Origin: Candidatus Levyibacteriota bacterium
Lineage (GTDB): Bacteria > Patescibacteriota > Microgenomatia > Levybacterales > GWA1-39-11
DNA length: 64,000 bases
Assembly (NCBI GenBank): GCA_036788695.1
Contig: DAIQMY010000001.1
Span: 313,773-377,772, forward strand
Direction: 5' to 3'
The position numbers and the translations under genes were made by a program. Positions 4,419 to 12,465 of the stretch are shown here, one piece after another. How positions within the stretch are numbered: position 1 is the first letter of the stretch; each line of letters begins with the position of its first letter. A model generated the notes under the pieces. The model was not told where the DNA came from, did no database searches, and saw only the letters and a program-made list of their open reading frames with translations.

Positions 4419-5489
4419 GTGTGCGTGCGAAAAATATTTTTACTTTTTAGTATACTTTTCTGTTTTTTTGTTTTATTTCTGTATCTTAAATCAACATTTC
4501 AAAAAAAAACTGTTCAACCAATTCGGGAGACTAGGACTGAAAAAATAGAAACAAGGGTTTCGCCGAAAGAAGAGTATTTATTCGTTCCTTACTGGACTAT
4601 AGATGAAGATATTTCATCTAGTGAGATGACATTAGTATATTTTGGGGTTTTGGGTGGGAAAAATGGGATTGAACAGAGTGATGAAGGATATAAAAACTTA
4701 TCAATGTTTGAAGAAAATAAAAATAGAAAAGACAGCATATTAGTTTTAAGAATGTTAAATACAGATACTAATTTAGATATATTAAAAGACAAAAAAATAC
4801 AGCAACGAATTATAGATGAGACAATAGTTCTTGCAAAGAAACACCACTTTTCAGGAATTATCTTGGACTTTGAAACGCAAGGATTGCCATTTAAAACTTT
4901 GCTTGAGAGCATTACGTCAATGCATGCGTTATTTGCAAAACAGACCCATTTATCAAGCCTTTCATTTGGTACATTACTATTTGGAGATACATTTTATAGA
5001 GTGCGTCCATATGATGTAGAAAAGATTGTGGAAGTGGTAGACCGCGCATATATAATGGCATACGACTTTAGTAAGGCCAAGGGTGACCCAGGTCCCAATT
5101 TTCCATTAAATGGGAAAAACACGTATGGATATGATTTTAAGATAATGGTTGAGGATTTTTTAGATGTTATACCTGGGCATAAGTTGACAATTATTTTTGG
5201 TATGTTTGGGTATGACTGGAAAATTGATGATAAAGGAAGAGGTCGAGAGCAAGCGATTTCTAAAAGTACAATTGCTTTTGAAAAATTTATGTCAACCTGC
5301 ATATCTAGTAGTACGTGTGATGCAAAAATGGATAGCCAATCAGCAGAAACTAACATAAAGTATATATCTGAGGACAAAGAGAATCATGTAATTTGGTTTG
5401 AAAATTCTGAATCTGTTATGAGAAAGAAAGCATTTCTTACTGACTTGGGTTTACGATCAGTTGGCTACTGGGCGTACTCATATTATTAG
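4419..5489 (+). CDS. Membrane-anchored GH18-like glycosyl hydrolase-fold protein (putative)
   Basis: N-terminal transmembrane anchor. GH18-like motifs GVLGG (SxGG-like), SGIILDFE (DxxDxDxE-like, retaining D and E) and IMAYDF (MxYD). Confidence 0.45.
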   Translation: MCVRKIFLLFSILFCFFVLFLYLKSTFQKKTVQPIRETRTEKIETRVSPKEEYLFVPYWTIDEDISSSEMTLVYFGVLGGKNGIEQSDEGYKNLSMFEENKNRKDSILVLRMLNTDTNLDILKDKKIQQRIIDETIVLAKKHHFSGIILDFETQGLPFKTLLESITSMHALFAKQTHLSSLSFGTLLFGDTFYRVRPYDVEKIVEVVDRAYIMAYDFSKAKGDPGPNFPLNGKNTYGYDFKIMVEDFLDVIPGHKLTIIFGMFGYDWKIDDKGRGREQAISKSTIAFEKFMSTCISSSTCDAKMDSQSAETNIKYISEDKENHVIWFENSESVMRKKAFLTDLGLRSVGYWAYSYY

Positions 5490-6060
5490 AAGCTTCTTTG
5501 CAAAAAATTGTTAATGGAGAAGTTCCCGTTAAAAGAGAAGAAGGAGTTTTTTGAGATCCCGCAAAACTTTTATTTAAAAAACGTATAACATGGGATCCGG
5601 TAGGAGTAGGTGAGTCAATGGTAAAAGTAAGTATTGCTACTTTGCTATTTCCTTTTTTTTCTGTGTTTTGTGCATTTAATTCCAGAGCGAGCGATGCTCT
5701 TCCATACTGTTCACGCGTTTCCTCAAGTAAAATTGAATAATCGGTACTTTCTCCAAAGAAATTTGGAGAATAGGGGGTAAGTCTCACGTTTTGAATCACT
5801 TCAGGGTTATATGACAATTCAATCTGTATGCTGTTTAGATAATTATTTTCAGACGAGACGTAGATAGGAACCTCATAAGAAGAATTTATACATGAGGATG
5901 TGATTGTATTCGGGTTGAAAAAAAGTATGGAAGACGGTGAATTGGAGCTAGATTCATTTTTTTGAGTAAGTGAGTTAAATGGTGATACATAAGACAATAA
6001 AAGAAATAGAAGAATTAGAACAAATATAGTTATTCCTAAAACAACGAGATATTTACTCAT
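5437..6060 (-). CDS. Membrane-anchored cohesin-like domain protein (putative)
   Basis: N-terminal TM helix, Ser-rich linker, then a ~110-aa beta-rich domain with a cohesin-like SYNPEVIQNV motif (compare cohesin SYDPNVLE). Its start lies 3 bp downstream of the stop of the dockerin-bearing protease gene. Confidence 0.4.
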   Translation of the reverse strand: MSKYLVVLGITIFVLILLFLLLSYVSPFNSLTQKNESSSNSPSSILFFNPNTITSSCINSSYEVPIYVSSENNYLNSIQIELSYNPEVIQNVRLTPYSPNFFGESTDYSILLEETREQYGRASLALELNAQNTEKKGNSKVAILTFTIDSPTPTGSHVIRFLNKSFAGSQKTPSSLLTGTSPLTIFCKEASNNMSTPSSQLIVNPSQ

Positions 6061-6063
6061 GAG

Positions 6064-8523
6064 TTAATCCCCGCCTCTTTCTCTTAGTTGTCTTAAGAAA
6101 ATATTCAAATCTTTTTCATCTATGTTTCCTTCATTATCAAAATCTGCAGTTATATGTATATCGTCGCAGATGTTGTTTATTATACAATTGACTAAGATGT
6201 TATAGTCTAGAATATCAAGCACGCCGTCTTTTACTAGGTCTCCAACAGTTAAGGCAGTAGTAGGAAGAGTTATATTATTTCCACTATCTTTTATAGTATA
6301 AAAACCTGGAATTGATTTTTTAAGCGTGGAAGACGCATCGGCGAAATTCACTCTCAGTTGGTATATTCCTGGAGGAATATTTAAAATCGGGATTTCCCCT
6401 GAAAACACACCGTTTTCATAGAGTAAGGGAGTTGTGATGGTTGAAGTAATTTCTCCATTCTTGTCAATAAATTCAATACTAGCAAATCTTACTTTACTGA
6501 TTGGGTCTGTGTTCCCTCCAGCCCCTATTCCAGGATGAATAAGTGATATTTTAATGGTTCCTTTGGATGAAGAAGATGTAGGTGTAGGGTTTGAGGGGGA
6601 GGGAGTACTTGCTACAGAAGTGATAGTGGGCGTAATAGCTGTAGTTGGGGTAGGATTTTGTGGTTGAGCTGTGGGGGTTGGGTTATTTGGCGAGTCTGTT
6701 GGAGTAGGATTTTGGTTATCAGGCATTAAAGAGTTTACTGCGCGTGCAAGATTTAATCGCGGACCAATAGGTCTATCAGTTGATATAGTATCTGCATTTG
6801 AAACTAATATGTTTTTTACTTCATCTGGTGATAGATTTGGGTTAATAGACAGCAGAAGTCCCGCAGCGCCTGCAACATGAGGGGTAGCCATAGATGTACC
6901 ATTGAGACTTTCGTATTGATTTTGTGGCCAGGTAGAAATAATTGATACACCCGGGGCGGAAATGTTGACAATCGAACCGTAGTTTGAAAAAGAGGCGCGT
7001 TGATCAGATTGCGTAGTTGCGCCTACTACAAATGTGCCATTACAGTTAGCAGGAGAACTTGTAGAAGCGTCGACTGGGATTCCTCCGGAAACTCCGTTTC
7101 CTGCTGCTACTATAACGCTTACATTAGCATTTCTCGCGTAGTCTACTGCTTCCTGAAATATACCACAAGGAGAATATCCACCCAAACTCATATTAATAAC
7201 TTTTGCTCCATTGTCTACAGCATAATGAATTGCCTGAATAATGATAGAGTCGTCTCCTTGACACTCACCGTTGTATTGTCCCATCGATTTAATTGCTAAT
7301 ATCTTTACATTCCAATTTACGCCTACAACTCCAATATTGTTATTGGTTAGGGCACCAATTGTGCCCGCTACATGTGTTCCATGTCCACATTCGTCCTGGG
7401 AGTCACTTGTTCCGTTAAAGAAATTATATCCATTTTCAATATGTCCAGATAAATCTTGGTGATTGTAATCAACCCCAGAATCAATAACTGCGACTTTAAT
7501 ATTATTATTTCCTTTTGCCTTGTTCCATGCACTAGGTCCTTGAATTTTTTCCATCCCCCACATTTGTGAAAAATATGGGTCGTTTGGAATCTCTGTTGTT
7601 TGTTTTATCCCGTTTTCAACTGCAAGTTCCACTGTTGGAAGTTTTTTATATTCATCTAGCGCGTTTTGTATTGATGTGTTTTTATCTAATGTTATGACTT
7701 GTGCATATTCTAGGGGTGTTTCATATTTCGTATTTTCCAGTAAGTTTTTTTCTTGGATAAAACTAACTTTCTCTTTGGTATCTGCATATAGCTCTTGTAG
7801 AACCATTGGATTTGGAGTTCTTGACATAGAATTTGCAGCATCCATTGCAGCTATTCTTGCCTGACCAAGTATAGGTTGAGAAGCAATTTTTGCTCTTTCT
7901 TGAAGATTTTCTGCCACGTTTGCAGGTGTTGTACCCTTTTTATACTGTACAATTATTTGCTGTTTTGAACGTTCGATTGGGCTTCTATCCGCTGACTGAA
8001 TAGTTTGAGTGGTTTTGATAGAGTTTGGTGCAGCATTTTTAACTTGAGGCAGCGCAAGAAATAGTTTAACAGCCTTTCTTACGTCAGACCCTTTTTTTAA
8101 GGTTACAAGATTAGTTGCTGACTGAGTTTTTTTTATAGGATATAAGTTTTTTTGAGATATGACCCCAGATTCCTCTTCAACCTTTGCTATCTGTTGTAAT
8201 TGATTAGTGTAGAAAGAAGTTCCTGGTATTTTGCCTGACAATTCCATAAAGAACATTTTAGTTTTATTTATAATTCCCTGAGAGTCTAGTTGTCGTTCTT
8301 TTAATGCAGCCTTGAGCTGTAAAGGGGAAAGTCCTGGTTGGTATACGACAATAATTTGAGAAGAATACTTTTCTAGCTGATTTTCAGCTACGGAATTTGG
8401 GGCAGCATAAGAAGAAGTACATACTGTTTTTAGCAGGAAAAAAAGTATAAGTAAAATAAGACCTCTTTTTAACACATATATATAGTAGCCTGCAAAAAAA
8501 AACTTCGCAATAGGAAAAAGCAT
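6064..8523 (-). CDS. Secreted subtilisin-like serine protease (S8) with duplicated N-terminal propeptide-like domains, Pro/Thr linker and C-terminal dockerin-like domain
   Basis: Signal/TM at N-terminus. Catalytic triad motifs VIDSGVD, HGTHVAGT, GTSMATPHVAG. PT-rich linker (NPTPTDSPNNPTPTAQPQNPTPT...). C-terminal DLVKDGVLDILDYNILV...DFDNEGNIDEKDLNIFL resembles a tandem dockerin calcium-binding repeat. Confidence 0.85.
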   Translation of the reverse strand: MLFPIAKFFFAGYYIYVLKRGLILLILFFLLKTVCTSSYAAPNSVAENQLEKYSSQIIVVYQPGLSPLQLKAALKERQLDSQGIINKTKMFFMELSGKIPGTSFYTNQLQQIAKVEEESGVISQKNLYPIKKTQSATNLVTLKKGSDVRKAVKLFLALPQVKNAAPNSIKTTQTIQSADRSPIERSKQQIIVQYKKGTTPANVAENLQERAKIASQPILGQARIAAMDAANSMSRTPNPMVLQELYADTKEKVSFIQEKNLLENTKYETPLEYAQVITLDKNTSIQNALDEYKKLPTVELAVENGIKQTTEIPNDPYFSQMWGMEKIQGPSAWNKAKGNNNIKVAVIDSGVDYNHQDLSGHIENGYNFFNGTSDSQDECGHGTHVAGTIGALTNNNIGVVGVNWNVKILAIKSMGQYNGECQGDDSIIIQAIHYAVDNGAKVINMSLGGYSPCGIFQEAVDYARNANVSVIVAAGNGVSGGIPVDASTSSPANCNGTFVVGATTQSDQRASFSNYGSIVNISAPGVSIISTWPQNQYESLNGTSMATPHVAGAAGLLLSINPNLSPDEVKNILVSNADTISTDRPIGPRLNLARAVNSLMPDNQNPTPTDSPNNPTPTAQPQNPTPTTAITPTITSVASTPSPSNPTPTSSSSKGTIKISLIHPGIGAGGNTDPISKVRFASIEFIDKNGEITSTITTPLLYENGVFSGEIPILNIPPGIYQLRVNFADASSTLKKSIPGFYTIKDSGNNITLPTTALTVGDLVKDGVLDILDYNILVNCIINNICDDIHITADFDNEGNIDEKDLNIFLRQLRERGGD

Positions 8524-9873: not shown

Positions 9874-9899
9874 CCTCGCATCCAATGCGAGGTTTTTTT
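9874..9899 (+). terminator. Rho-independent terminator/attenuator between tuf and rpsJ
   Basis: 8-bp perfect stem CCTCGCAT/ATGCGAGG, loop CCA, followed by T7. A second hairpin (9845-9861) precedes it. Confidence 0.7.
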
Positions 9900-9915
9900 G
9901 TTTAAGGAGAAAAAA

Positions 9916-10224
9916 ATGCCAAAAGGAAGAATAAGAGTTAGACTAAAATCATATGATCCCAGGATTATAGATAGTACGTGTCAACAAATCTTAGACACGG
10001 CAATTCGTACTGGAGCAAAAGTAGTTGGTCCTGTACCTCTTCCTACTCAACGATCTATGTTTGCAGTTAATAAATCTGCGTTTGTTGATAAAAACGCGCA
10101 AGAACATTTTCAAATTAAAACACATAAACGCCTTATTGATATTATGTCCCCAACAGATAACACTATAGAATCCTTAATCCACTTAGATCTCCCAGCAGGT
10201 GTGGATGTAGAAATTAAGATGTAA
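9916..10224 (+). CDS. rpsJ: 30S ribosomal protein S10
   Basis: MPKGRIRVRLKSYD... Shine-Dalgarno AAGGAG 7 nt upstream of ATG 9916. The ORF-track start at 9898 is a TTG inside the terminator T-tract. Confidence 0.95.
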   Translation: MPKGRIRVRLKSYDPRIIDSTCQQILDTAIRTGAKVVGPVPLPTQRSMFAVNKSAFVDKNAQEHFQIKTHKRLIDIMSPTDNTIESLIHLDLPAGVDVEIKM

Positions 10225-10225
10225 C

Positions 10226-10600
10226 ATGTCTTTATTGGAAAGAATACGTGCTCCATTTAAAAAAGCAAATCATTTTCCACCCGTGGTTTTTCCCTCAAGT
10301 AAAGAAGTAAAGAAGACCCCCACAACTGAAAATCCATATGCGAATAATTCTTTAAATGACTTTTTAAAGATTAATTCATTTGAAAAATTATCAACAGAAG
10401 AGCGGATTCAAATTTCTAAAAACCTTCGCAAGATGGCAGAAGAAGCAGAGAGCGAATTTCATGAAAAAAGTGCGATTCGAGACAGAGATGAGAGCGTGAA
10501 ACTTATGAGAATAGTGTTTGAATTGGAGAAAATGAATAATTACCAGACAGATACATCTGAGGTGAATCAGGATTTTTCATCTTCCAAGCATCTAAAATAG
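10226..10600 (+). CDS. Hypothetical hydrophilic K/E-rich protein inserted between rpsJ and rplC
   Basis: 124-aa ORF starting 2 nt after the rpsJ stop. No recognisable domain. Codon usage resembles neighbours. Confidence 0.45.
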   Translation: MSLLERIRAPFKKANHFPPVVFPSSKEVKKTPTTENPYANNSLNDFLKINSFEKLSTEERIQISKNLRKMAEEAESEFHEKSAIRDRDESVKLMRIVFELEKMNNYQTDTSEVNQDFSSSKHLK

Positions 10601-10750
10601 ATGGGATACGTTTCCATAGAGAGTTTAGCCTCGTTGCGAGCTTGCATTTTGCTTACGACTTCTATATAATAACTTTTACTCATGTTTAGGTTTACTACCG
10701 AGACTGAATGGAACACTACATAAGAGCTTAGCTGCATTTTTTTGCGTATG

Positions 10751-10778
10751 AAGCGACTTTATGTAGTCGCTTTTTTTG
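10751..10778 (+). promoter_or_regulatory. Terminator-like hairpin + U-tract immediately upstream of rplC start (putative attenuator)
   Basis: AAGCGACT-TTATGT-AGTCGCTT, a perfect 8-bp stem, followed by T7. It ends 12 nt before the rplC ATG. Confidence 0.5.
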
Positions 10779-10789
10779 TGTTTAAACAT

Positions 10790-11671
10790 ATGTCTTTACA
10801 AGCAATTATTGGGAAAAAAATAGATCAGACGCAGGCATTTCTGGAAGACGGAAGACGAATTCCTCTTTCACTGATTTCTGTGTCTGGAAATGTTATTGCA
10901 CAAGTAAAGACATTGGAAAAGGACAAATATACGTCTGTACAGCTTGGATTTGGAGATAAAAAAAAGGTAAATAAAGCAACAGAAGGACATGTAAAAAAAG
11001 CGGGACTTACAAAAACACCCCGCTTTTTTCGTGAAGTAAAAGTTGAAGATATCACAGGATATGAGGTTGGGACAGTCGTAAACGTTGAGGAAATGCTTGA
11101 GCTAGGAGACGTTATTGATGTAACTGGAACATCAAAGGGAAAAGGATATGCTGGGGTAGTTAAAAGACATGGGTTTAAAGGTGGACCGAGAACGCACGGA
11201 CAGTCTGATCGTGAACGCGCGCCTGGTTCAATCGGTCAAACAACAACACCTGGACGTGTTTATAAGGGAAAAAGGATGTCCGGGCGTATGGGAAATGAGC
11301 GTGTGACTATTAAAAATCTGACAGTAGTTGATATTAAAGATGGCATAATTTATGTTCGTGGTTTGGTTCCAGGGGTGAAGGGGTCATTAGTAATGATTTC
11401 AAAAGTGAAAGAAGATAAGAGAAGTAGAGCCACAAAGAAGAAATTTGTTCCTCTTTTCTCAATCAAAGAAGAGGTTCTTGAAGAAAAAAGCGTAGAGCCT
11501 GTTGTTGTAGAGACTGTAGAAGTTGAGACACTTCCCGAAGATCCACAAAAAGTTGTTGAAGAAAAGATAGAGGAAACAGCTGCGCCTATAGAAATAGCAA
11601 AAGAAGAAGTAAAAGTAGACGATAAACCTAAAAAAGAAGCTGTATCTGAAGGAAAAGAGGAGGATAAGTAA
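10790..11671 (+). CDS. rplC: 50S ribosomal protein L3 with long K/E-rich C-terminal extension
   Basis: MSLQAIIGKKIDQTQAF start. L3 core through ~residue 200, then ~90 aa charged tail (KVKEDKRSRATKKK...EGKEEDK). Confidence 0.9.
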   Translation: MSLQAIIGKKIDQTQAFLEDGRRIPLSLISVSGNVIAQVKTLEKDKYTSVQLGFGDKKKVNKATEGHVKKAGLTKTPRFFREVKVEDITGYEVGTVVNVEEMLELGDVIDVTGTSKGKGYAGVVKRHGFKGGPRTHGQSDRERAPGSIGQTTTPGRVYKGKRMSGRMGNERVTIKNLTVVDIKDGIIYVRGLVPGVKGSLVMISKVKEDKRSRATKKKFVPLFSIKEEVLEEKSVEPVVVETVEVETLPEDPQKVVEEKIEETAAPIEIAKEEVKVDDKPKKEAVSEGKEEDK

Positions 11672-11673
11672 TT

Positions 11674-12465
11674 ATGGCTGAAAAAAAGATAAAAAAAGAA
11701 GCAAGCGCACAAAAGACAAAAACTCTTGATAAAAAAACAGTGGTGAAGCCCGTAAAGGAGAATGTGAAGATTATGAAAGATACAAAAAAGAGCAAAATGA
11801 AAACAAACGAGCCAAAGGACGCAGTAATCTCCACAAAAGAAACATTTTCAGTAGATGTATATGGATTAGATGGCAAGGTATCAGGGAAGGTAAATATTCC
11901 CACTGAAATCTTTAAAGCAAAGGTAAACCTTACTTTAATGGCTCAGGCTGTAAGAGTATATCTTGCAACGCAAAGAAGCGGAACATCTTCTACAAAAACA
12001 AGATCAGAAGTTTCAGGAACAACAAAGAAGATGTATCGCCAGAAGGGTACGGGTCGTGCGCGCCATGGAGCCGCAAAAGCGCCTATTTTTGTGGGTGGTG
12101 GAATTGCTTTTGGTCCAAAACCGAGAAGCTTTGCTCTAACCCTTCCGAAGAAAATGAGAAGGAAAGCGCTTTTCTCTGCCTTAACAAGTAAGTATTCAGA
12201 AAATAATCTTATGATTTTAGATGCAGCACAGGCTACAGGGAAAACAAAAGAAATTGTAAACACATTTAAAAATCTTGGACTAACAAAAAAAGTAACTATT
12301 GTGGTTACTCCAGAAGAAAAACAGATTTCCCGTGCAGCAAGAAATATTAAGGGAGTAACAGTTGAGCACGCTGCAAACTTAAATACCTATAGCGTTTTAA
12401 ATAGTAATACTGTTATTTTTGCAAAAGATGCACTTAGTATTTTGCAGAGTACGTTTTTAAAATAA
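11674..12465 (+). CDS. rplD: 50S ribosomal protein L4 with K-rich N-terminal extension
   Basis: L4 core (GTGRARHGA...PIFVGGG...FGP). ~55-aa lysine-rich N-terminal leader. Confidence 0.9.
   Translation: MAEKKIKKEASAQKTKTLDKKTVVKPVKENVKIMKDTKKSKMKTNEPKDAVISTKETFSVDVYGLDGKVSGKVNIPTEIFKAKVNLTLMAQAVRVYLATQRSGTSSTKTRSEVSGTTKKMYRQKGTGRARHGAAKAPIFVGGGIAFGPKPRSFALTLPKKMRRKALFSALTSKYSENNLMILDAAQATGKTKEIVNTFKNLGLTKKVTIVVTPEEKQISRAARNIKGVTVEHAANLNTYSVLNSNTVIFAKDALSILQSTFLK

Follow-up and report, generated by a model that had tools for sequence, protein, structure and literature searches.

In the cellulosome of Clostridium thermocellum, the X-module-dockerin (X-Doc) dyad of CipA is held by type II cohesins of SdbA, OlpB or ScaC-type proteins, with SLH domains providing the anchoring. 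In Ruminococcus flavefaciens, the anchor ScaE is joined covalently to the wall by sortase. [quoted passage not shown] The pair described here resembles those in not being tied to plant cell wall degradation. Proteases are also among the anchored proteins. [quoted passage not shown] 2013). Since protease anchoring by cohesin-dockerin is thus documented in Firmicutes, the principle is not new.

Two adjacent genes in a 64-kb stretch of DNA (the window) encode an S8 subtilase ending in an X-Doc dyad and a membrane-anchored single-cohesin protein, respectively. The CPR lineage assumed in an earlier, sequence-only reading is correct, the source being a tiny uncultured bacterium of Candidatus Levybacteria/Levyibacteriota. 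We propose that the two genes are probably transcribed together and make up a minimal cassette for cohesin-dockerin tethering. Compared with type II anchoring in C. thermocellum, the X-Doc is on the enzyme rather than on a scaffoldin, and the putative anchor has about 200 amino acids, one cohesin and an N-terminal transmembrane (TM) helix in place of SLH domains. No SLH match was found in the pair using Pfam, and neither a multi-cohesin scaffoldin nor a dockerin-bearing glycoside hydrolase lies nearby in the 64-kb window. Clo1313_0689 has two dockerins in tandem and lacks an X module; ScaD, to which it binds, is a scaffoldin of several modules from a cellulosome producer, and its gene is not beside that of the protease. 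The window subtilase has a single X-Doc and, in its CPR genome, an apparently dedicated TM-cohesin encoded next to it. As with ScaE, the X-Doc dyad would tie a peptidase to a single-cohesin cell-surface anchor, the binding being predicted in our case; the R. flavefaciens system is, however, cellulosome-associated, and its enzyme is a cysteine peptidase, ours a serine peptidase (S8). Unlike ScaE, the window protein has no LPXTG motif and is anchored by its N-terminal TM helix.

Organization of the gene pair

Both minus-strand ORFs of the sequence-only reading, of 819 and 207 amino acids, were recovered (Table 1), and the junction sequence bears out its placing of the second three bp past the first on the same strand. 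The TAA of the subtilase gene is followed by CTC and then the ATG of the cohesin gene, both ORFs share one frame, and a purine-rich AGAGGCGGGG is found 5' of this ATG. A terminator and promoter scan revealed nothing above chance; since the spacer contains no terminator, the two genes are predicted to be co-transcribed.

Table 1. Features of the subtilase-cohesin locus (window coordinates)
Feature	Position	Strand	Basis or remark
819-aa secreted S8 subtilase gene, C-terminal X-module-dockerin dyad	6064..8523	-	ORF list; TAA stop at 6064-6066
Signal peptide region, ~residues 1-41	8401..8523	-	read from sequence; hydrophobic core LILLILFFLL
Propeptide-like N-terminal region (Fervidolysin N-pro / I9-like)	7534..8400	-	Pfam PF22148
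S8 catalytic domain, residues 340-578	6790..7506	-	Pfam coordinates and motifs
Pro/Thr/Ser-rich linker, ~residues 586-654, 54% P+T+S	6562..6768	-	computed composition
X-module-like beta-sandwich, residues ~655-757, packed directly N-terminal of dockerin	6253..6561	-	
Dockerin, residues 758-819, two 22-residue segments	6067..6252	-	Ca-loop-like motifs 762-773 and 794-805
Spacer between subtilase and cohesin genes, 3 nt	6061..6063	-	sequence
207-aa membrane-anchored single-cohesin protein gene	5437..6060	-	ORF, homologues, structure
N-terminal transmembrane signal-anchor, residues 2-24	5989..6057	-	helix in AlphaFold model
Short Ser-rich flexible linker, residues 25-43	5932..5988	-	pLDDT <50 for 29-41; poorly conserved
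Cohesin domain, beta-sandwich, residues 44-187	5500..5931	-	AlphaFold, Foldseek, Pfam, family profile
Disordered C-terminal tail, residues 188-207	5440..5499	-	pLDDT <50 for 193-207
GH18 gene, convergent, TM-anchored	4419..5489	+	Pfam Glyco_hydro_18, E 1.4e-18

The S8 subtilase

Pfam analysis of the 819-aa protein revealed Peptidase_S8 (E 9e-62) and Fervidolysin_NPro-like (PF22148) domains, the latter in two stretches of which the best covers residues 134-167 (E 3e-7); the orthologues match it too. The motifs VIDSGVD, HGTHVAG, GTSMATPHVAG and AAGNG were located, and the triad Asp348/His381/Ser544 is intact, with Asn476 as the oxyanion residue. The signal peptide is likely cleaved after SYA, and the orthologues possess classical Sec signal peptides with AxA-like sites at their ends. 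The architecture is common to all 19 full-length orthologues, with the linker aligning to PT-rich linkers in every one. Judged from its sequence, the protein is a secreted, catalytically intact S8 subtilase.

The two repeats noted earlier in the C-terminal tail are present as DLVKDGVLDILDYN (residues 762-775) and DFDNEGNIDEKDLN (residues 794-807). Dockerin_1 is the best non-catalytic Pfam match of the protein (17.2 bits, E 0.006, profile positions 2-56 of 57), just below the gathering threshold; it spans the whole module here and in every orthologue tested, and is above threshold in the relatives L003 (23.2 bits) and P0050 (32 bits). The HMM check that the sequence-only reading had suggested therefore favours a dockerin, with the window copy itself falling short. 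A profile of 17 tail sequences matched solved dockerins in the PDB, the best being X-Doc dyads, namely 2b59_B (E 6.6e-8), 3kcp, 5g5d_B, 4wi0_B and 4u3s_B. Of these, 2b59, 3kcp and 5g5d represent the type II cohesin/X-module-dockerin system of C. thermocellum. The earlier assignment to type I dockerins thus holds for the identity of the module and not for its type: because an X-module-like beta-sandwich accompanies the dockerin, an X-module-dockerin dyad of type II-like character fits better than a plain type I dockerin. The proposed calcium loops are canonical in the family consensus at positions 1, 3, 5, 9 and 12. The window copy is slightly degenerate: Val replaces Asn/Asp in loop 1 (position 3) and Glu replaces Asp in loop 2 (position 5), both positions being canonical in the consensus. 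Its calcium site 1 may be weakened.

Perhaps the dockerin acts alone and brings the protease to a host or substrate surface, by calcium-dependent adhesion or by binding glycans, the cohesin being functionally unrelated; this we regard as very improbable. Adhesion or glycan targeting has been speculated for non-cellulosomal dockerins of Omnitrophota and Saccharibacteria, in papers which name no cohesin partners (PMC10066038; PMC10633639). In our case, however, a cohesin gene follows after 3 nt, such genes are found repeatedly next to dockerin genes, and the dyad matches modules solved in complex with cohesins. We know of no dockerin with a demonstrated glycan-binding function.

The cohesin protein

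The 207-aa protein contains everything ascribed to it from sequence, i.e. an N-terminal TM segment, a Ser-rich linker, a beta-rich domain and an S-Y-[ND]-P-x-V-[LI] motif (ELSYNPEVI). Reading of its sequence revealed no pilin-type and no lipoprotein motif, and Lys3 is predicted to face the cytoplasm. Residues 191-207 overlap the 3' end of the opposite-strand GH18 gene, and 184-aa orthologues lack the C-terminal tail.

The AlphaFold model of the domain (pLDDT ~95) was compared with the PDB using Foldseek, and the 50 best matches were 50 cohesins, led by 6kgf_C (E 1.2e-9, TM 0.74). Among the structural matches are 2xdh, the Archaeoglobus fulgidus cohesin, and modules of Clostridium perfringens, whose NagH/NagJ is 2ozn; both exemplify the pairs unconnected with plant cell walls mentioned above. 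Since type I cohesins rank first, the type of the window cohesin is ambiguous. Cohesin is also the best Pfam match (21.9 bits, E 2e-4, profile positions 15-117 of 139); as with the dockerin, the window copy lies just under the gathering score and relatives pass, among them an L012 protein which is 42% identical to the cohesin domain (30.4 bits).

The family to which the protein belongs comprises at least 720 sequence clusters, mostly unannotated; almost all its members have about 200 amino acids and the TM plus single-cohesin layout. A strongly hydrophobic N-terminal segment occurs in 137 of 148 representatives, and 87 of 141 match Pfam Cohesin, with no rival family. The window-family profile finds L009_199 at 56.6 bits, itself a Pfam Cohesin protein (43 bits); in an exhaustive search the family profile finds a classical CBM3-dockerin-cohesin scaffoldin (E 7e-14), and a broad version reaches PDB cohesins (E 1.5e-5). 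The earlier identification as a membrane-anchored cohesin is therefore supported by sequence and model.

Chance likeness, in which the dockerin is mimicked by Asp/Asn-rich repeats of low complexity and the cohesin by a beta-sandwich of a general kind, is hardly credible. It could draw on the sub-threshold Pfam scores of both window proteins and on a narrow nine-sequence profile which found no PDB cohesin by sequence, but relatives score above threshold, the tail-profile and scaffoldin matches are as given above, and the fold matches are exclusively cohesins or dockerins. We consider it effectively refuted by these fold matches, the Foldseek cohesins, the PDB dockerins found with the tail profile and the Pfam Cohesin matches in the family.

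Gene neighbourhood

A search for the pair in relatives, as the sequence-only reading had proposed, found it conserved in Levybacteria down to 37-42% identity (S8: 37%) and recurring in unrelated gene contexts. In Levybacteria the EF-Tu/S8/cohesin/GH18/MurB neighbourhood is syntenic as a whole, and conservation of the pair there is therefore not independent evidence. The GH18 gene is a conserved neighbour in all Levybacteria loci; its product gave no dockerin match, and its membership in a tethering system is not shown. Outside this synteny, the TM-cohesin gene adjoins at least one dockerin-ending gene in five of seven independent contexts, the cargo being an S8 protease, a VWA/SdrD_B protein or unknowns. 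Searched from the dockerin side, the cohesin gene is immediately downstream in 4/4 close relatives. No partner was found nearby for TM-cohesin genes on two short contigs (L018, L019) or for one distant dockerin gene (L024).

These data bear upon two further explanations. The 207-aa protein might be a protease accessory factor, serving in the membrane as a chaperone for maturation, as an inhibitor or in self-protection, with a cohesin-like fold and no anchoring role, as its tight operonic coupling to the protease, its sub-threshold Cohesin score and the many functions served by beta-sandwich folds would allow. We think this quite unlikely, since the family also adjoins non-protease cargo, the dockerin rather than the protease is common to the neighbouring genes, the subtilase already has its own pro-domains, and sequence as well as fold supports homology to true cohesins. 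Alternatively, the subtilase dockerin may bind a cohesin encoded at another locus or carried by another cell, and the TM-cohesin may accept other dockerin proteins, the adjacency of the two genes being inherited synteny. The shared Levybacteria neighbourhood fits this, as do the clusters of several dockerin or cohesin genes in L009 and L014, from which partner choice is not one-to-one everywhere, and the reported promiscuity of protease dockerins across species (PMC12484212). No further cohesin- or dockerin-like ORF was found in the window, but as the scan covered 64 kb of the genome others may exist in it. Set against this are the recurrence of adjacency with different cargo in five of seven unrelated contexts, the 3-nt spacer in a window with no other cohesin or dockerin, and the orthologue alignment, in which conservation within the tail is highest in the dockerin helices, beside a conserved cohesin. 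On balance such non-partnership is unlikely.

Conclusions

The domain identities, topology elements, intact triad and adjacency, with its conservation and recurrence, are established. In the proposed tethering cassette, the subtilase would be exported by Sec and matured by removal of its pro-domains, and its X-Doc dyad would plug, in a calcium-dependent manner, into the one cohesin that the 207-aa protein carries, holding the protease on the producer cell. The signal-anchor helix would fix this protein in the cytoplasmic membrane with the cohesin outside on a linker of about 20 residues, and the Pro/Thr linker of about 65 residues would let the catalytic domain reach outward from the anchor point. 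Against this cassette stand the sub-threshold Pfam scores of both modules and the two non-canonical calcium-ligand residues; the shortness of the TM-to-cohesin linker also weighs against it, since it makes the reach of the cohesin past the cell wall questionable.

No description of a family of about 200 amino acids with TM and single cohesin beside dockerin cargo was found in the literature searched; protease anchoring as such is known in Firmicutes (PMC12484212). What would be new is protease anchoring that is TM-based, operonic and non-cellulosomal, in CPR. Environmental protein or the surface of a host cell may serve as the substrate, and the likely benefit to an organism with little biosynthetic capacity would be that proteolysis and the released peptides are kept at the cell surface. 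If true, the cell-surface tethering of the cellulosome would have been reused, in minimal form, to keep a protease on the cell.

Gene organization

The pair consists of two minus-strand genes, one for a subtilase (S8) and one for a small membrane-anchored protein (TM-cohesin), with the coordinates and sizes expected from the sequence-only reading. The stop codon of the S8 gene (TAA) is separated by three bases (CTC) from the ATG of the TM-cohesin gene, and a purine-rich stretch, AGAGGCGGGG, lies just 5' of this ATG. Both ORFs share one frame, and a fusion of the two through a stop recoded under genetic code 25 was considered. This was ruled out by the identity of the stop codon, TAA, and by the fact that translation with the standard bacterial code (table 11) leaves long ORFs intact; the two genes are thus a pair and not a recoded fusion. 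Promoter and terminator scans at the locus gave only chance-level matches, and no further cohesin- or dockerin-like ORF was found within the 64-kb window.

Coordinates and content of features in the window and at related loci
Feature	Location	Strand	Content	Basis
S8 ORF	6064-8523	-	819 aa	ORF reading
TM-cohesin ORF	5437-6060	-	207 aa	ORF reading
GH18 gene	4419-5489	+	convergent neighbour of the pair
Antisense overlap	5437-5489		53 nt, 3' ends of the TM-cohesin and GH18 genes
Ribosomal-protein cluster region	9898-12465	+	includes the genes for L3 and L4
ORF between rpsJ and rplC	10226-10600	+	124 aa
L009	238-4813		S8-cohesin-dockerin protein, then TM-cohesin (Pfam Cohesin 43 bits); before these, a protein that matches cohesin and dockerin weakly
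L012			two-dockerin protein upstream of TM-cohesin
L013			X-module-dockerin fragment upstream of TM-cohesin
L014-L016			TM-cohesin, then a 500-aa protein of unknown function and a 628-aa VWA/SdrD_B protein, both dockerin-ending
L014	5001-9160		P0200, then two non-protease dockerin-ending cargo genes
L017			dockerin-ending protein upstream of TM-cohesin
L018, L019			TM-cohesin on short contigs; no dockerin seen there
L024	4278-5546		dockerin-ending protein

The convergent GH18 gene specifies a TM-anchored protein which retains the D-x-E catalytic motif (LDFE) and has no dockerin. In the overlap of the 3' ends, the GH18 C-terminus ('...GYWAYSYY') is encoded opposite the disordered tail of TM-cohesin, residues 191-207, in which 'STPSSQL' is conserved. 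The 184-residue TM-cohesin orthologues of loci L006 and L007 have no such tail, so that the GH18 reading frame is the probable cause of its conservation. In the nearby ribosomal-protein cluster, the L3 product (309 aa) ends in a long extension rich in Glu and Lys, and the L4 product starts with a Lys-rich extension of ~60 residues. Loci L003 and L006 possess small ORFs at positions similar to that of the 124-aa ORF between rpsJ and rplC.

The protease and its C-terminal tail

S8 has a Peptidase_S8 match (Pfam, E 9e-62) over residues 340-578, preceded by fervidolysin-type pro-domains. The triad Asp348, His381 and Ser544, together with the oxyanion Asn476, occurs in subtilisin order and in canonical motifs. 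The N-terminus contains a hydrophobic core followed by SYA/AP, and textbook Sec signal peptides are present in the orthologues. The catalytic domain is followed by a linker of ~65 residues, 54% of which are Pro, Thr or Ser.

The two dockerin-like repeats noted in the sequence-only reading were located at residues 762-775 and 794-807, in tandem segments of ~22 residues (762-783 and 794-815), each with a 12-residue EF-hand-like loop and a helix after it. The Dockerin_1 profile (PF00404) covers this region almost completely (positions 2-56 of 57) and scores 17.2 bits against a gathering threshold of 22.9. All three S8 orthologues retrieved first also match Dockerin_1, one of them, from L003, above threshold (23.2 bits), as does P0050, the S8-cohesin-dockerin protein of L009 (32.0 bits). 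Precomputed PF00404 domains are found on six more distant full-length orthologues, and a family HMM detected the module in 19/19. The calcium-loop residues are canonical in the family consensus (D-x-N-x-D-G-x-L-D-x-x-D and D-L-N-x-D-x-x-V-D-x-x-D; positions 1, 3, 5, 9 and 12), whereas the window copy, which does have both segments, deviates at two positions, with Val at position 3 of loop 1 and Glu at position 5 of loop 2.

Over 25 solved dockerins were matched by a profile built from the last 180 residues of 17 sequences. Scaffoldin X-dockerin dyads scored highest, with 2b59_B (E 6.6e-8) followed by 3kcp, 5g5d_B, 4wi0_B and 4u3s_B. The alignment to these dyads extends into the beta-domain that precedes the dockerin. 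From the same 17-sequence alignment AlphaFold2 predicted, at a pLDDT of 87.9, a beta-sandwich followed by a helix, a short helix and a helix. The tail thus combines a predicted three-helix dockerin fold with profile similarity to solved dockerins. Immediately in front of the dockerin, and packed against it, lies an Ig-like X module, as in type II X-module-dockerin dyads. Positions 10 and 11 differ between the two segments (Ile-Leu as against Ala/Glu-Lys), which, by analogy with known dockerins, suggests a single rather than a dual binding mode.

The 207-residue TM-cohesin

The best Pfam match of TM-cohesin is Cohesin (PF00963), which covers profile positions 15-117 of 139 and scores 21.9 bits (gathering threshold 24.1). 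Most close homologues show a collinear match, also below threshold. A relative at L012, 42% identical to the window domain, scores above it (30.4 bits), as does the 199-residue protein of L009 (43 bits). Screening with the two Pfam models places both window copies below threshold, whereas members of the same families, L003 and P0050 for the dockerin and L012 and L009_199 for the cohesin, lie above it.

AlphaFold2 modelled TM-cohesin with a pLDDT of 85.2 overall and ~95 over residues 44-187, as a TM helix (residues 2-24) joined by a disordered linker to a beta-sandwich. The N-terminal anchor and the beta-rich domain proposed in the sequence-only reading are both present in this model. In a Foldseek search of the PDB each of the 50 best matches is a cohesin; types I, II and III are all represented, as is the non-cellulosomal cohesin of Archaeoglobus. 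The first has an E-value of 1.2e-9 and a TM-score of 0.74, and target-normalised TM-scores of 0.71-0.78 agree with the flattened nine-stranded (jelly-roll) cohesin fold. The partner of a type II dyad is a type II cohesin, distinguished by an extra helix and beta-flaps. In the Foldseek ranking type I cohesins come first, with type II below them (E 1e-6, TM 0.42-0.58); by sequence, the family profile matches type II ScaB cohesins best (E 1.5e-5). Among PDB cohesins the broad family profile reaches 3l8q_A (E 1.5e-5), 1qzn and 6kgc_A. P0282, a scaffoldin of the classical CBM3-dockerin-multi-cohesin type, is matched (E 7e-14) by the profile used for the exhaustive family search.

A narrow profile of nine sequences matched no cohesin in the PDB, its top match being a 'flagellin-like protein' (8rey_M) at an insignificant E of 0.045. 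A hydrophobic N-terminal helix followed by a beta domain might also describe a pilin- or archaellin-like protein. This reading was rejected because the protein lacks a class III signal-peptide motif and because nothing but cohesins was returned when searching by fold and by family. No SLH repeats were matched by Pfam in TM-cohesin and no LPXTG motif is present, the C-terminus being NNMSTPSSQLIVNPSQ; the predicted N-terminal TM helix is its means of attachment.

While a word-indexed search found only 8 homologues of TM-cohesin, an exhaustive profile search recovered at least 720 clusters (50% identity) at E <= 1e-3, with 254 at E <= 1e-10. The family has a median length of 201 residues, and a strongly hydrophobic N-terminus is present in 137 of the 148 representatives listed. 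Pfam Cohesin was matched at E <= 1e-3 by 87/141 representatives (best 4e-13), with no rival family. None of the 8 close homologues carries a precomputed Pfam domain. One orthologue, P0003, was labelled 'flagellar basal body-associated protein FliL' by JGI, a label which neither fold nor family searches support. Another protein, P0014 (104 aa), has a TM helix at its N-terminus and, besides this, only a dockerin; in this inverse layout the plug rather than the socket is membrane-anchored.

Linkage of cohesin and dockerin genes

The named orthologues belong to Candidatus Levybacteria or Levyibacteriota, in agreement with the CPR affiliation assumed at the outset. Wider sampling with two alignments added 3 and 6 loci, and a further alignment matched nothing among the metagenome contigs. 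The gene pair recurs in every Levybacteria locus obtained. In all of these the S8-dockerin gene is directly followed by TM-cohesin and then by GH18, which is always convergent to the pair. The block adjoins tuf and the S10 operon, an arrangement which holds down to 37% S8 identity. Because the block is syntenic, conservation of the pair in Levybacteria is weak evidence by itself; the unrelated gene contexts listed in the table are stronger evidence of linkage. When the search was run from the dockerin side, a cohesin gene lay directly downstream in 4/4 close relatives. Around the distant dockerin gene of L024, no cohesin gene was detected in the 5 kb upstream or in the 0.85 kb downstream. Its 423-residue product, from a soil metagenome, is 29% identical to the window tail and breaks the adjacency rule. 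A second distant dockerin gene, L025, has too little downstream sequence for adjacency to be scored.

Two of the loci are more elaborate. At L009, three consecutive genes, for proteins of 296, 833 (P0050) and 199 residues, carry cohesin and/or dockerin modules, an arrangement more suggestive of a small hierarchical chain than of a simple pair; the cohesin and dockerin matches of the 296-residue product are weak. At L014 the TM-cohesin (P0200) is a distant member of the family, and the 500-residue cargo protein has no Pfam domain besides its dockerin. Loci L011 and L012 (CAYMYC010000001.1 and CAYRYY010000014.1) are of the Levybacteria type and bear the TPA title 'uncultured Gammaproteobacteria bacterium', which is probably a taxonomic mislabel.

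Relation to known systems

Cohesin-dockerin pairs outside cellulosomes have long been known (Peer et al. 2009, as cited in PMC10066038 and PMC2930009). According to the summary in PMC12484212, the double dockerin of a C. thermocellum S8 protease prefers the cell-bound ScaD cohesin, and a cysteine peptidase of R. flavefaciens binds the ScaE anchor through an X-dockerin dyad. The sequence-only reading had supposed that such pairs are not described as protease anchors in this lineage, and our literature searches returned no description of cohesin-dockerin tethering in CPR bacteria. Protease anchoring by cohesin and dockerin is already known from Firmicutes (PMC12484212), and its proposed TM-anchored, non-cellulolytic CPR form is an extension.

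Several differences separate this form from the precedents. Anchoring scaffoldins of the SdbA, OlpB and ScaE type are attached through SLH or LPXTG signals, whereas the window protein has an N-terminal TM helix. Cellulosomes combine a multi-cohesin scaffoldin with several dockerin-bearing CAZymes; the window contains one cohesin and one dockerin within 64 kb, and neither scaffoldin nor CAZyme cargo is in view at the locus. Unlike in C. thermocellum and R. flavefaciens, a putatively dedicated single-cohesin socket is encoded here beside its cargo, in a CPR lineage.

Proposed function and significance

The best-supported reading of the locus is a minimal cohesin-dockerin tethering cassette; what had been observed in the sequence is confirmed, and the interpretation placed upon it is supported. 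The S8 protease would be secreted and then kept on the membrane of the producing cell by a calcium-dependent interaction between its X-dockerin dyad and the cohesin, while the long PT linker would lend the catalytic domain reach. We infer the binding from genomic linkage, and infer also its calcium dependence, the membrane orientation, co-transcription and the substrate. The locus offers a concrete and readily testable mechanism, a membrane cohesin socket that would hold a large protease on the cell, and extends such anchoring from cellulosome-producing Firmicutes to a genome-reduced, non-cellulolytic lineage with another type of anchor. In addition, it draws attention to a large family of small proteins that standard annotation overlooks, and compact orthogonal cohesin/X-dockerin pairs could find use in protein-display engineering.

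More tentatively, TM-cohesins may be a general plug-and-socket system of surface display in CPR bacteria, each with interchangeable X-dockerin cargo encoded beside it, and may also be the receptors of SEML1_0315-like proteins. SEML1_0315 is an essential dockerin-domain envelope protein identified by Tn-seq in a cultivated CPR bacterium, a member of the Saccharibacteria (PMC10633639), where no cohesin partner is mentioned for it. The cargo might then comprise proteases, VWA-type adhesins and proteins of unknown function, sometimes with hierarchical chaining as in the S8-cohesin-dockerin protein of L009. This more ambitious, CPR-wide reading draws on few loci and on metagenomic sequences; it is plausible, though less likely than not.

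Knowledge of how the cell surface is built and armed is central to an understanding of the episymbiotic or scavenging lifestyle of CPR/Patescibacteria, whose envelope proteins are mostly unannotated. If the wider reading is true, plug-and-socket display would be among the chief means by which these ultra-small bacteria equip their surface to scavenge from host cells or attach to them. TM-cohesins would then provide dockerin-domain envelope proteins with their missing receptor, and the family is an obvious candidate in the case of the essential SEML1_0315.
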